Shown here: positions 3,842-38,883 of the stretch, piece after piece
Layout: every line of letters begins with the position of its first letter
How positions within the stretch are numbered: position 1 is the stretch's first letter
Source of the DNA: Candidatus Woesearchaeota archaeon
GTDB lineage: Archaea; Nanobdellota; Nanobdellia; Woesearchaeales; SKGA01
DNA length: 43,356 nt
Direction: 5' to 3'
Assembly (NCBI GenBank): GCA_016926395.1
Contig: JAFGOT010000017.1
Span: 1-43,356, forward strand
Notes under the pieces: generated by a model
Seen by the model: only the letters and a program-made list of their open reading frames with translations
Told to the model about the DNA's origin: nothing
Databases searched by the model: none
Translations under genes and position numbers: made by a program

Positions 3842-4423
3842 ATGCAATTTAAAACAGAAAGAGCAATTTCTAAAGATTATATACCTAACAAGATTCTAAC
3901 ATATATTGCTAGTGATGAAGGAAGACTTCTTGAAATAAAAGCAATAGGTGAAACAGAAATAGGCCTAAATCTTAAGACAATGTGGTATATACCATATAAT
4001 ATTTCAACAATAGTGAATTGTTACAATACAATAATCAGTGAGATTGACACATTTTCAAATATTAATTATGAAGTTGCAATTGGAAGTCAAGGAAAAAGGA
4101 AAAACAAACGAGAAGAAAGAAAAATACCCTTTTCCAGACTTGATAAAGTCATCCATCCTTTAATACTAGCGAGACCAAAAGATATTGCACTTGGAATAAA
4201 TTCCAATTATGGATCATTTTGGCTTGAAGGAGATAATATACAAGAAGGAGCAGATTTTATTGAAATTGTAAGTCCATTTAATCTAGCAAAACTCATTAGT
4301 CAATTACTTAGAAAAACAAATATCATAACAACTTCTCAAAGACAAGATATGGAAACAATCCTTGACTTATCATACGACTATTACCTAAATGAAGATAGAA
4401 ACAAAATGTTTTTAATGAAATAA
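3842..4423 (+). CDS. Hypothetical protein (193 aa)
   Basis: Long ATG-started ORF divergent from tRNA-Glu. No motif recognised. Confidence 0.7.
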   Translation: MQFKTERAISKDYIPNKILTYIASDEGRLLEIKAIGETEIGLNLKTMWYIPYNISTIVNCYNTIISEIDTFSNINYEVAIGSQGKRKNKREERKIPFSRLDKVIHPLILARPKDIALGINSNYGSFWLEGDNIQEGADFIEIVSPFNLAKLISQLLRKTNIITTSQRQDMETILDLSYDYYLNEDRNKMFLMK

Positions 4424-4430
4424 GAAATGG

Positions 4431-4504
4431 TGCACCGAGCGGGAAAGCAATAATCAAAGATTATTGGTCCCTGTCATCGCATTAAAAAATGCACCGAGCG
4501 GGAA
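4431..4504. repeat. 15-bp direct repeat of the tRNA-Gly 3' end enclosing palindrome copy A (4448-4466)
   Basis: TGCACCGAGCGGGAA at 4431-4445 and 4490-4504. CAATAATC-AAA-GATTATTG lies between them. Confidence 0.9.
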
Positions 4505-4560
4505 TCGAACCCGCGCCGAAGCCTTGGCAAGGCCCCATTGTACCATTCAACCATCGGTGC
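4490..4560 (-). tRNA. tRNA-Gly(GCC)
   Basis: GCACCGA/TCGGTGC acceptor stem, GGGCC-TTGCCAA-GGCTT anticodon arm, GGTTCGATTCC T arm. Confidence 0.95.
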
Positions 4561-4615
4561 GTATAAACGTAAGTATTTATTATTCCTTTTTAAAGCTTAC
4601 GCGAAAAAACAAAAT

Positions 4616-4746
4616 GTGAGCCTGCGGGGATTCAATTAGCTACAAATCTCAAACTTGTTTGTTAGAGTTGTCTAATTGTCCCAAAAATCTTTGATTTTTG
4701 AGGATGTGAAAATACCCGAAGGTGAATAGGTGAGCCTGCGGGGATT
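4616..4746. repeat. 17-bp direct repeat of the tRNA-Ile 3' end enclosing palindrome copy B (4682-4700)
   Basis: GTGAGCCTGCGGGGATT at 4616-4632 and 4730-4746. Between them are CAAAAATC-TTT-GATTTTTG and a second inverted repeat CAATTAG...CTAATTG (4633-4678). Confidence 0.9.
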
Positions 4747-4840
4747 TGAACCCCGGACCACCAGCTCTCTTCGAGCGAAGACTCTCATGCGAGTCAGCGT
4801 CATATAAGACTGGCGCTCCACCGGACTAAGCTACAGGCTC
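4731..4840 (-). tRNA. tRNA-Ile(TAT) with 36-nt intron at position 37/38 (intron 4767-4802)
   Basis: GAGCCTG/CAGGCTC acceptor stem, A73. Removing 4767-4802 gives the anticodon arm CCAGT-CT-TAT-AA-GCTGG and a 74-nt tRNA. The junction folds as a relaxed bulge-helix-bulge with one A.G mismatch. Confidence 0.85.
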
Positions 4841-14133: not shown

Positions 14134-14958
14134 TTATTTCCACATAGAAAGAGATTCTTCTTCAATATGATGCAAAGTCCCAGGAATAATAATACTATGA
14201 AGAGGAGCTCCGAAATCCACGTTCAATAATTCTTCAATAGGGGCTGCAACGATTTTAAAATCATCATGACCTAAACGAGCAACACCAATAGCAAAATCAT
14301 CTTTTAAAATAACACCTTCTTTCTTTTCATCTTCAATATGAATTAATACTTCAAGACCTTGTTTTACAGTCATATATCTTGGTGGCATGGTTTTTGGAAC
14401 GTAATTTGGATCTCGAGCAGATTTAAGAAGTTCTTCCTTACTAGGTTCTGCAACTTTAATATCAAGTAAGCAAAGAGTGTGAAGGCCTAAAGATTTGTTT
14501 TGTTTAATCACATCATAAGGAGTGCTTGGGTACCAATCATCATCTGGAAAAACAATACTAGTAGTTTTACCATATTTGTAAAGCTCTAAACCAACAATAC
14601 CAACAGCATTTAATACGGAGACATTAAAAATTGGAACTACTTTGACGTCTTCTTCTTTAGCTCTCAACATAAGATCGCTGTGCGTGGTAGCACCAAAAAT
14701 ATCACCAACAACAAGTAAAGCAACATTTTTTTCTTTAGCAGGATTGATAAGTTTCTCTTCAGCCTCTTTTTCAACTAAATCACGAGAAGCGACAATAACT
14801 TCTTTACCATAAAGAGATTCAAGTTTATTTTTGTCCACGCCCAAAATTGAAGTATAATGTTCTAAATAAATGTAATCACAAGACTTAACAGCTTCTAAAC
14901 CTTTAAGAGTGATATCTTTCTCGTCAGCAAGCCCAATTCCAATTAAGTAAAGAGTCAT
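14134..14958 (-). CDS. dph5: Diphthine synthase
   Basis: LYLIGIGL, EHYTS, GDIFGATTHSDL, GLELYKYGKTTS, GLHTLCLLDIK, PLHSIIIPG. Confidence 0.96.
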   Translation of the reverse strand: MTLYLIGIGLADEKDITLKGLEAVKSCDYIYLEHYTSILGVDKNKLESLYGKEVIVASRDLVEKEAEEKLINPAKEKNVALLVVGDIFGATTHSDLMLRAKEEDVKVVPIFNVSVLNAVGIVGLELYKYGKTTSIVFPDDDWYPSTPYDVIKQNKSLGLHTLCLLDIKVAEPSKEELLKSARDPNYVPKTMPPRYMTVKQGLEVLIHIEDEKKEGVILKDDFAIGVARLGHDDFKIVAAPIEELLNVDFGAPLHSIIIPGTLHHIEEESLSMWK

Positions 14959-15056
14959 GTAATAACAAAAAGGAGGATTTGTTTATAAAAGTTAAGAAAT
15001 AATTAGTTAATCAAACTTCATAATAAGAATTAAAAAAATAAAAAGAAGGTAAAAAT

Positions 15057-15147
15057 CTATTTACCTAAACTTTTTTGGAACAACAATAATCAAAGATTAT
15101 TGAGCTTCAAAAGATCACTTTCCAAGTGACTTTTGAAATATAAGTAA
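15057..15147. repeat. Synonymously recoded duplicate of a CDS 3' end enclosing palindrome copy C (15084-15102)
   Basis: In-gene TTT CAA AAG TCA CTT GGA AAG TGA and downstream TTC CAA AAA AGT TTA GGT AAA TAG both read FQKSLGK*. CAATAATCAAAGATTATTG is identical to copy A. Confidence 0.9.
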
Positions 15148-32118: not shown

Positions 32119-32192
32119 AAGAGGTAAAAAAAATGCAAACAAAAATGAATTTTCATTTTTGAGTATTTTTTTAACAAGAGGTAAAAAAAATG
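32119..32192. repeat. 17-bp direct repeat of SD plus start codon enclosing palindrome copy E (32140-32161)
   Basis: AAGAGGTAAAAAAAATG at 32119-32135 and 32176-32192. CAAAAATGAA-TT-TTCATTTTTG-AG lies between them. Confidence 0.9.
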
Positions 32193-35899: not shown

Positions 35900-35963
35900 C
35901 TAAAATGAAGCGTTTATAGTCCTCAAAAATGAAATTTTTGGGACATTAAAAAGAAGCTTTTAT
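35900..35963. repeat. Diverged duplicate of the DHH gene 3' end enclosing palindrome copy D (35924-35940)
   Basis: In-gene ATA AAA GCT TCT TTT TAA versus downstream ATA AAC GCT TCA TTT TAG. The minus strand between them reads GTCC-CAAAAAT-TTC-ATTTTTG-AGGAC. Confidence 0.8.
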
Positions 35964-37325
35964 TGATTCTATGAATTCTTCTTTCTTGTCTTTGTTAATG
36001 ACAGCACCGGCTGCATTATCATGACCGCCACTAGTTCCACCAACTTTGGAAACTGCATCACTTAAGACTTCTTGAAGTTTAAAATCTTTCGCAGATAAAC
36101 TTACCCTAAGAGAAACTTTAATTTCATCAGTAGATGTTTCACCAAGAGTACAAACTACAACACCTTCACGATAAATTTTATTTCTTGCAAGAATTGAAGC
36201 AACAATACCAACAATACTTGAAGGAATTTTATTTTCAAAATCAATTAAAACTAATTTATCATTTTCTATTAAAGTACCTTGTGCTCTTTTATCATCAACA
36301 ATTTGAAGTGCATCCCTGATTGCAGATTTGTAAACACGAAGATTCATACTTGCAATTTGTGCGGCATCTCTATCTCCTTTTAATGTATTAACACCAACCC
36401 TATATTGTTCGAGTCTTCCGCTTGCGTTAATTATTGTTGCACACTCACGTATATCAATCATTTCACGTCTAGGTGCATTTGGAAGAGAATAAGCATAAAC
36501 CAATAGTTTAGAATCATCCTCTTGAGCTCCTTTTAATTCAAGAATCTTTTCAGTAATAGCAGCTTGTTCAAAAGGTCTTAAATTAAACCATTTTTTTAAT
36601 CGGCCATTCCATTCCCACATAATACCAAGATCATCTAAAAAATCTTTAACACCTTTAGGATCATTTGTTACGCCCGGAATGTCAACATCACTACTGTATT
36701 CTAGAACTTTAAGTAAAGGACGAGAATTAATACCATAAAGTTTTATTTGTTTAGATAACACAACAGTCTTTTGAATAACAGCATGTTGTAATATTCTATT
36801 ATTTAAATCTTGAAAACCATTATCTTCTTGAGAATCACCAATCGCGCCTATTACAGCTAAGTGAGCAAGTGTACGATTATCTTTGTTCATACCCATAGCA
36901 AAGAAATAACAAACACCACTACCGCTGATACTGTTTTTTTCAGTAACACCACTAACCAAAGGATTAATATGAACTAAATGTAAATTATCATTAGTGGAAG
37001 GTTCGTGATGGTCAAGAACAAAAACTAGTTTATCATTTGCAAACTCAGATATTTTTTCAAGAACAGTAGCACCAATGTCTGCAAAAACATAAACATCAGA
37101 GTCAGTCTTAAAAACAGAATCTAAAAAAATCTCATCAAGAGATTGGGCGTGCATAGTAACATACGAAATATTCTCTCTATCAAAAGCAAGTTCTAAAAGA
37201 GCAGCAGAACTTAAACCATCAGTATCAAAATGAGTAACAAGAGCAACATGTTTACCTTTTGCTACTTCAACAAATTCTTTTCCCGCCTTAGTTGCGGCAT
37301 CTACAAAATCATCATGTAAAGACAT
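35946..37325 (-). CDS. DHH-family RecJ/GAN (Cdc45-like) nuclease
   Basis: THFDTDG, FADIG, LDHH, GAIGD, NASGR, GGHDNAAG. Adjacent to rps15, as in many archaea. Confidence 0.88.
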   Translation of the reverse strand: MSLHDDFVDAATKAGKEFVEVAKGKHVALVTHFDTDGLSSAALLELAFDRENISYVTMHAQSLDEIFLDSVFKTDSDVYVFADIGATVLEKISEFANDKLVFVLDHHEPSTNDNLHLVHINPLVSGVTEKNSISGSGVCYFFAMGMNKDNRTLAHLAVIGAIGDSQEDNGFQDLNNRILQHAVIQKTVVLSKQIKLYGINSRPLLKVLEYSSDVDIPGVTNDPKGVKDFLDDLGIMWEWNGRLKKWFNLRPFEQAAITEKILELKGAQEDDSKLLVYAYSLPNAPRREMIDIRECATIINASGRLEQYRVGVNTLKGDRDAAQIASMNLRVYKSAIRDALQIVDDKRAQGTLIENDKLVLIDFENKIPSSIVGIVASILARNKIYREGVVVCTLGETSTDEIKVSLRVSLSAKDFKLQEVLSDAVSKVGGTSGGHDNAAGAVINKDKKEEFIESIKASF

Positions 37326-38861: not shown

Positions 38862-38883
38862 CAAAAATCTTGCCAGGTTTTTG
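38862..38883. repeat. Boundary palindrome, copy F
   Basis: ATGCAAA-CAAAAATCT-TGCC-AGGTTTTTG-AGCATTTTTT shares both flanks with copy E. Confidence 0.75.

Follow-up and report, generated by a model that had tools for sequence, protein, structure and literature searches.

How can the end of a gene come to stand twice in a row, with the same residues written in different codons? This question is raised by a gene for a DUF7121 coiled-coil protein in a Candidatus Woesearchaeota (DPANN) archaeon, located on a 43,356-nt stretch of DNA (contig JAFGOT010000017.1 of assembly GCA_016926395.1; the whole stretch is referred to as the window). The source genome (G000) is a metagenome assembly of 1.02 Mb with 32% GC, in 40 contigs and 82.5% complete. 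The gene ends in FQKSLGK and a stop codon, and the same seven residues and stop are spelled a second time downstream. The two copies differ at 11 of 24 nt, and all of the differences are silent, including a Ser codon (TCA/AGT) and the stop itself (TGA/TAG). We see about an even chance that the second copy came with an imported, gene-less cassette placed by recombination, whose attachment region would be a copy of the target gene end.

Inspection of the sequence bore out the original prediction, which had placed a second FQKSLGK-stop 58 bp on with 11 synonymous differences in 24 nt (Table 1). The stop-to-stop offset of 58 nt puts the distal copy in frame +1 relative to the proximal one, and the Gly codon is GGA in the proximal and GGT in the distal copy. 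The codons of the proximal end (TCA CTT ... AAG TGA) are the rarer ones, and hairpin H1 forms a perfect stem through them. Hairpin H2 separates the copies, and hairpin H3 encloses the distal one, followed by a U-rich tract at ~15027-15047 that is common to the close relative L076. The RNA fold of H1, H2 and H3 together has a z of -3.9. The 58-nt insert that holds H2 and the recoded tail contains no open reading frame (ORF). An in-frame TGA lies ahead of the distal copy, which has no consistent start codon, and nothing suggests that it is translated. The match had also been extended upstream to LLIF in one copy and LLLF in the other; this extension is present, and is less telling because two of its codons in the second copy (TTA TTG) belong to the 3' arm of the palindrome.

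Echoes of this kind are far from random in the genome. Among 1636 ORFs counted from stop to stop and 80 aa or longer, 7 are followed within 150 nt by an exact re-encoding of their last 7 residues, against 0.05 by permutation. A stop-anchored scan of 1632 ORFs found 11 cases in which 4 or more C-terminal residues in a row recur unchanged, with a stop, in the 220 nt downstream, against 0.2 by permutation; the earlier proviso that the genome-wide rate might equal random expectation thus does not describe this genome, and chance is excluded as the cause of the DUF7121 echo. When the observed number of sites at this locus was substituted at random in a neutral-decay simulation, the peptide was kept 0 times in 400,000. 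The all-silent pattern is therefore incompatible with neutral decay of a duplication, as had been argued, and the second copy has been shaped by coding selection. The claim that both copies were under coding selection is supported in so far as the second copy is coding-shaped; on the reading preferred here, the two would not both be read in the present cell. A two-strain assembly chimera could be suspected in a metagenome assembly. However, the protein is found unchanged in an independent Logan assembly, again 156 nt from the next gene, and many assemblies of other species have this architecture too. A chimera or a chance match, the latter countered by the 11 echoes above, is exceedingly improbable.

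A protein search found two close relatives, L076 (95% identity) and L077 (83% identity; same lineage as L021), each with the FQKSLGK tail and a single gene end. Alignment of the window with L076 showed that exactly 58 nt (15048-15105), comprising H2 and the recoded copy, are absent from L076. The insert is thus polymorphic in presence and absence, its size agrees with the predicted length below 60 bp, and L076 provides the orthologous empty locus that had been proposed as a check, with an end spelled like the proximal copy (the last five codons, i.e. the last 15 nt, are the same). Over 33 nt, L076 differs from the proximal copy at 3 positions and from the distal copy at 14, and the two copies differ from each other at 15; over the final 24 nt, the distal copy and the L076 end differ at 10. 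The flanking DNA of the two genomes is ~10% diverged, and the T-rich flank common to both comes after the distal copy in the source genome. Ser is encoded by TCN in the proximal copy and in L076, L077, L078 and L004, and by AGT in the distal copy. H1 shows a compensatory change between the genomes, CAGAA/TTCTG in L076 and CAAAAG/CTTTTG in the source genome, and therefore looks native in both.

Resemblance of the native end to that of a sister species is the test used for fungal mORF elements (PMC3630166). The spelling of the distal copy is foreign, and by this test, which rests on one sister contig, the working proximal end appears native and the unused distal copy foreign. Judged from the codons, the proximal spelling is not derivable from the distal one by silent steps. 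Two distant lineages that have this tail as well, L080 and L078, spell their real ends only 4-5 nt in 24 away from the distal copy, and 4 of its 8 codons are shared with real ends of distant lineages, which equals the background rate. The identical-codon rate at conserved residues is 0.54-0.60 even for distant pairs, so this likeness shows only ordinary coding-end spelling. On the same figures, the idea of end-spelling types cutting across the protein tree was rejected.

These comparisons bear on an in-place duplication of the target by a transposon-like hairpin insertion, i.e. a long target-site duplication followed by divergence. Such an event would suit the DNA-identical repeats that flank the insert at most other loci described below, and the hairpin being a many-copy inverted repeat. 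However, L076 lacks the insert and yet differs from the proximal copy at only 3 of 33 positions, with the two copies 15 of 33 apart, which excludes an in-place duplication after the split from L076. The all-silent pattern and the switch of Ser codon family also argue against it, as do the repeat lengths, which range over 13-82 nt and are not fixed. Together with the enzyme searches below, this makes target duplication improbable at DUF7121.

Comparable echoes occur at the DUF7121 ends of other species. The orthologs within the genus are only 55-62% identical to the source protein, and several are followed by an echo of their own species-specific tail: FQRSMSK-stop in L007 (10 of 24 nt different, including AGA/CGC, AGC/TCT and TCA/AGT), FQKANK-stop in L008, FQKSS-stop, twice, in L005, and VMKK-stop in L006. 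In L003 a near-identical copy stands behind a family-B insert, and decayed echoes are present in L010 and in the third unit of L007. For the five pairs in L005-L008, L003 being excluded, the probability of the all-silent pattern under neutral decay is 10^-3 to <10^-5. The family-B module downstream of the DUF7121 stop of L003 (genome G001; ...ACGCTCGCCTATGCACGAATGGC...) is 22/23 identical to family-B modules of the source genome, and the two species are 62% identical in DUF7121; on sequence comparison, this near-identity suggests strong constraint or recent transfer.

That the peptide is kept in several species could mean that both copies are in use, through removal of an RNA intron of the bulge-helix-bulge type, ribosome skipping, or DNA excision in part of the population, and selection would then act on both spellings. 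A splicing endonuclease is present in the genome, and at one tRNA locus the 5' acceptor strand is able to pair with the distal, CCA-bearing copy. However, the stop-to-stop offsets across species fall in all three frames, and the distal copy has an in-frame stop immediately upstream and lacks a consistent start codon. Neither a bulge-helix-bulge motif nor staggered 3-nt bulges appear in the folds, which show simple hairpins and an internal loop of symmetric 3x3 form. Of the sequencing runs listed as containing the stretch, none is registered as RNA, and the single RNA run listed for that study has next to none of its sequence words. The GGA/GGT mismatch at Gly argues against ribosome hopping, and the 95% sister manages without the insert. 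We consider use of both copies quite improbable.

The stacked hairpins could also have produced the echo as a structural by-product, if their arms had to be complementary to the same middle segment. Consistent with this, CTTTTGAA after the stop pairs both with proximal TTCAAAAG and with distal TTCCAAAA, and the inner-stem/outer-stem design occurs in another genome as well. Pairing, however, covers the F-Q-K codons at most. It leaves S-L-G-K-stop, encoded in unrelated bases, unexplained, as well as the other tails echoed in other species; the match of SLGK-stop largely refutes a by-product, which is very improbable.

The DUF7121 insert belongs to a class of ~20 loci in the 1 Mb genome in which a short hairpin module lies between two copies of a gene terminus. 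The class involves 9 of the 25 tRNA genes and 9 or more protein genes. The inserts fall into 3-4 families. Most of the other loci have DNA-identical direct repeats, 13-82 nt of the gene 3' end, around inserts of 35-100 nt. In the tRNA members the second 3'-end copy lies 44-130 nt downstream, with inserts of 44-100 nt; 7 of the 9 tRNA repeats start in the T-loop or at its edge, and they mostly run to the discriminator. Those of protein genes reach as far as the stop. Where copies are nearly identical, their differences concentrate at the last codon or stop, and residual homology past the exact repeats is modest (34% versus 27%, z ~2.7), which fits target duplication or recombination.

The hairpin families are specific. 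Generic hairpins are barely enriched (307 versus 210 in shuffles), and the enrichment is restricted to specific families. Of the 18 genomes of the taxonomic family, 9 have the family-C core, to which H2 belongs; those other than the source have 1-3 copies each, and the reversed control of the core gave 0 matches. In relatives the family-C hairpin likewise lies beside tRNA 3' ends, between repeats, and close matches to the hairpin with flanks occur in published genomes of other families in the order; matches in unpublished genomes (G222, G147 and others) were left out of account. Family A was found in G000 only. The Rfam 15 covariance models gave no match for the inserts; only the neighbouring tRNAs score.

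Table 1. Positions of the duplicated gene end, neighbouring genes and related features. Positions refer to the window unless a contig of G000 is named.
Feature	Position	Strand	Basis or remark
Proximal (working) end FQKSLGK-stop, TTT CAA AAG TCA CTT GGA AAG TGA	15138..15115	-	Sequence; native type
Distal spare copy FQKSLGK-stop, TTC CAA AAA AGT TTA GGT AAA TAG	15080..15057	-	Sequence; recoded, ordinary codon usage
Hairpin H1, tail codons paired with AAGTGA and the bases right after the stop; stop inside stem	15106..15137	-	RNA fold; compensatory change vs L076
Hairpin H2, family-C palindrome core CAATAATCTTTGATTATTG, between the two copies	15084..15102	-	12 copies in G000 vs 0.8 expected
58-nt insert: GCT + H2 + TTG + recoded tail + ATTTTTACC	15048..15105	-	Alignment with L076
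Hairpin H3 around spare tail and its stop	15040..15075	-	RNA fold
DUF7121 coiled-coil gene, 297 aa	15115..16008	-	ORF; Pfam PF23435
Diphthine synthase-like gene (TP_methylase; dph5), next downstream	14134..14958	-	ORF, domain match
tRNA (4490-4560) 3' end TTCCCGCTCGGTGCA, copy at 4431-4445; H2-type hairpin 4448-4466	4431..4504	-	CCA in distal copy only
tRNA (4731-4840) 3' end AATCCCCGCAGGCTCAC, copy at 4616-4632; 97-nt insert	4616..4746	-	Hairpin 4682-4700
Gene 35946..37325, end IKASF-stop (35946-35963); echo INASF-stop (35900-35917)	35900..35963	-	Hairpin 35919-35944
Related hairpin between two 17-nt copies of ribosome-binding site (RBS) + ATG at gene start	32119..32192	+	
Tyrosine recombinase genes	G000 C30:441-6427, C18, C6:19883-20986		Three clustered at C30 start, one on 2.6-kb contig

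Several observations were made at individual members of the class. Family-A inserts, with two hairpins each, lie at G000 C38:3051-3104, C29:9553-9614, C17:39190-39257 (-) and C19:24262-24366 (-). At 3 of these 4 loci a frame of the type ILVQLLxEKV runs in frame into the spare end, giving possible ORFs of 38-46 aa, which is not significant (P ~0.1); family C has no ORF of this kind. At C19:24150-24470 (-) the two copies share an identical repeat of 35 nt and then pass into homologous ends that have diverged, RNTFN-stop in the working copy and RNAFAPKDD-stop in the distal one, and the working protein is 4 residues shorter. A tRNA-Leu gene at C32:10050-10360 (-) has two extra 3'-end copies, 47 and 109 nt downstream, which look like two stacked inserts. 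In the minimum-energy fold of tRNA plus trailer at window 4420-4565 (-), the CCA-bearing distal copy is the pairing partner of the 5' acceptor strand, and two extra hairpins form in the insert; on this model, a longer alternative tRNA precursor is thermodynamically possible. ARAGORN found 16 tRNA genes in G000 (none on contig C22) and the Rfam model 25, and duplicated ends and inserts may confuse tRNA finders. At the gene start at 32119-32192 the hairpin is CAAAAATG...CATTTTTG; a mini-ORF of 9 codons begins at the first RBS+ATG copy, and the real gene at the second. There is another hairpin of this sort at 38862-38883. Tandem repeats unrelated to the class occur at C33:11354-11876 (period 270 nt, identical blocks of up to 85 nt) and at the contig start C17:1-170 (period 86 nt).

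The relation between the two DUF7121 ends could also be the reverse of the one proposed here. In a push-down replacement of the e14/icd or fungal mORF type, the proximal end and H2 would have been borne by an element that entered an ancestor common with L076, the distal copy would be the displaced native end, and L076 would later have lost H2 and the displaced end. Several features speak for this. The distal copy and the native stop of L077 are each followed by the heptamer ATTTTTA, which comes after only 4 of 1185 stops in G000, the U-tract terminator belongs to the distal copy, the distal copy of L003 has a flank orthologous to L002 and the ancestral K-stop, and CCA is retained solely by the distal copy in three tRNA cases. 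On the other side, a push-down needs an additional exact 58-nt loss in L076. The compensatory change in H1 gives this hairpin a native look, the distal copy has only 1 of 8 codons in common with L077 (ortholog average 0.66), and its Ser AGT is not the clade state. We regard push-down as unlikely.

Returning to the cassette, the distal FQKSLGK-stop would be an untranslated spare DUF7121 end that arrived within the 58-nt non-coding insert, which comprises the family-C hairpin H2 and the spare end folded in H3, and which would have been placed right behind the native stop-codon hairpin H1. The spare end would formerly have been a working gene end in another lineage, and all of its differences would be silent for that reason. 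The insert would be one of the tiny gene-less hairpin cassettes that in G000 and its relatives occupy the ends of tRNA genes and protein genes. Integration would occur by recombination, either through a tyrosine-type recombinase or with the aid of homology, the machinery being provided in trans. That tRNA repeats run from the T-loop to the discriminator and protein repeats to the stop is expected if the carried copy need only cover the functional end. Integration is also favored by the concentration of copy differences at the last codon or stop, by the identical repeat at C19 that passes into diverged homologous sequence, by the differing cargo genes in the DUF7121-dph5 gap of close relatives, and by the set of recombinases found. 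Imported, silently diverged C-termini have precedents (PMC3630166, PMC6379469), as does the tRNA-gene situation (PMC4383910). The original prediction held that an element brings a replacement gene end, or that 3' ends are swapped by recombination. The link to a repeated, apparently mobile hairpin module in a variable gap stands; by the comparison with L076, however, the end now in use appears native and the insert would have brought a spare, and no integrase, attP or excised allele could be linked to it.

Tyrosine recombinases, with 4-5 genes, are the sole recombinase class found in G000. Searches of this 82.5% complete genome found no Y1/HUH, IS110, serine recombinase or Cas1, and RAYT (Y1 transposase, PF01797) had no match; the sole Cas12f/TnpB-type match lies below the family cut-off. 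These results also count against a transposon-like target duplication. Guide-RNA-like readings (TnpB, IscB, CRISPR) were dropped, given no TnpB-type match at the cut-off and no Cas1. A diversity-generating retroelement was rejected as well, with no RVT_1 match and differences that are silent and not A-specific. Viral contigs contained no exact match to H2 or the distal copy.

A number of points weigh against the imported cassette. None of the inserts contains or adjoins a recombinase gene. The integrases are encoded on other contigs, which show neither an attP-like match to a gene end nor att repeats, nor the hairpin module. The searches, which covered the DNA of 400 genomes of the order, found no donor lineage with a real end spelled like the distal copy; the matches to the distal copy in those genomes were rejected as chance AT-rich sequence, not DUF7121 ends. 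The inserts, at 34-100 nt, are far below the size of any known integrative element. Just 13 of 24 nt are common to the two copies, which leaves unexplained how the cassette would find the DUF7121 gene, and the DNA-identical repeats at most other loci are equally explained by target-site duplication. The direction of the event, a gain in the source genome or a loss in L076, is judged from just one sister contig, and the heptamer mentioned above favors push-down.

The gene itself is well placed in its family and its neighborhood. Its product matches PF23435 with 57.2 bits (gathering cut-off 29, E=2.4e-15), it sits downstream of the ribosomal stalk genes P1/P0/L1, and 40 of the 41 relatives have an ortholog. 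Between DUF7121 and dph5 lies a gap that is a variable hotspot among close relatives. It holds a Peptidase_S51 gene in L076, an opposite-strand GH15 gene in L077, and no gene in the source genome (window 14959-15114 compared with L076:2892-3604 and L077:2892-4345). A candidate remnant of the peptidase gene end is retained in the gap of the window (...TTTGATTAA).

In a more general and more tentative form, DPANN archaea may possibly harbor gene-less mini-cassettes, each a conserved hairpin plus a terminus copy, that are moved in trans and between species, enter right at the ends of tRNA genes and protein genes while leaving these intact, and stack spare ends there. If so, these very small symbiotic archaea would have a prolific, enzyme-less site-directed insertion that has marked 9 of 25 tRNA genes and many protein genes, and coding-derived sequence would move between lineages, a new source of DPANN genome plasticity. 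Very small genomes would have in it a general means of DNA insertion and of trading gene ends and terminators. It would also explain failures of tRNA finders on DPANN genomes, provide natural markers of integration hotspots, and possibly lead to a recombinase that recognizes its targets in an unusual way, such as by hairpins or gene termini. In annotation, gene-end echoes should count as neither pseudogenes nor assembly errors.

A literature search found no published description of gene-less hairpin inserts that carry gene-end copies, and the nearest systems each match in part. The integrative elements e14 and phage 21 enter icd of E. coli at the 3' end of the target gene and carry a replacement end (PMC6379469). 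As at DUF7121, two 3'-end copies surround the inserted DNA, the gene stays intact, and the copies differ mainly at silent sites, which they can do because each was under coding selection. In contrast, the insert here is 58 nt, with no gene and no integrase, and ~20 different targets are used in one 1 Mb genome. In elements of the e14 type, attL and attR have an identical core. The DUF7121 copies share only CAAAA and 13 of 24 nt, and other loci of the class have identical repeats of 13-82 nt. Unlike in e14, the unused distal copy appears to be the foreign one, at 14 of 33 differences from the 95% sister against 3 of 33 for the proximal copy, in a comparison with one sister.

Integration at a T-loop sublocation of tRNA genes was reportedly described by Williams in 2002. 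Genomic islands with tyrosine integrases in tRNA and tmRNA genes are collected in Islander (PMC4383910). Both there and here the 3' part of the tRNA is duplicated, from the T-loop to the end, giving a regenerated gene and a displaced fragment; the inserts here are, however, 44-100 nt long and non-coding, with a conserved hairpin at the center and no adjacent integrase. In fungal mitochondria, mORFs bring a foreign C-terminus to Allomyces atp6 and to Glomus atp6, atp9, cox2 and nad3 (PMC3630166). The duplicated C-terminus, low DNA identity and conserved protein are shared features, but mORFs encode their own endonuclease and place the foreign copy in frame, whereas the DUF7121 insert has no ORF and the in-frame copy appears to be the native one. 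Small palindromic repeats of the REP/BIME, REPIN and MITE types (PMC3184786, PMC3733652) are likewise short, many-copy extragenic palindromes right after stop codons. They lack a neighboring gene-end copy; no RAYT/HUH transposase was found in G000, and the loci described here have no fixed short target duplication. The logic of replacement and displaced ends at integration sites is thus known (PMC6379469, PMC4383910, PMC3630166); unlike in those systems, the carrier here is 58 nt long and non-coding, the class occupies ~20 loci in one genome, and the spare end is unused.
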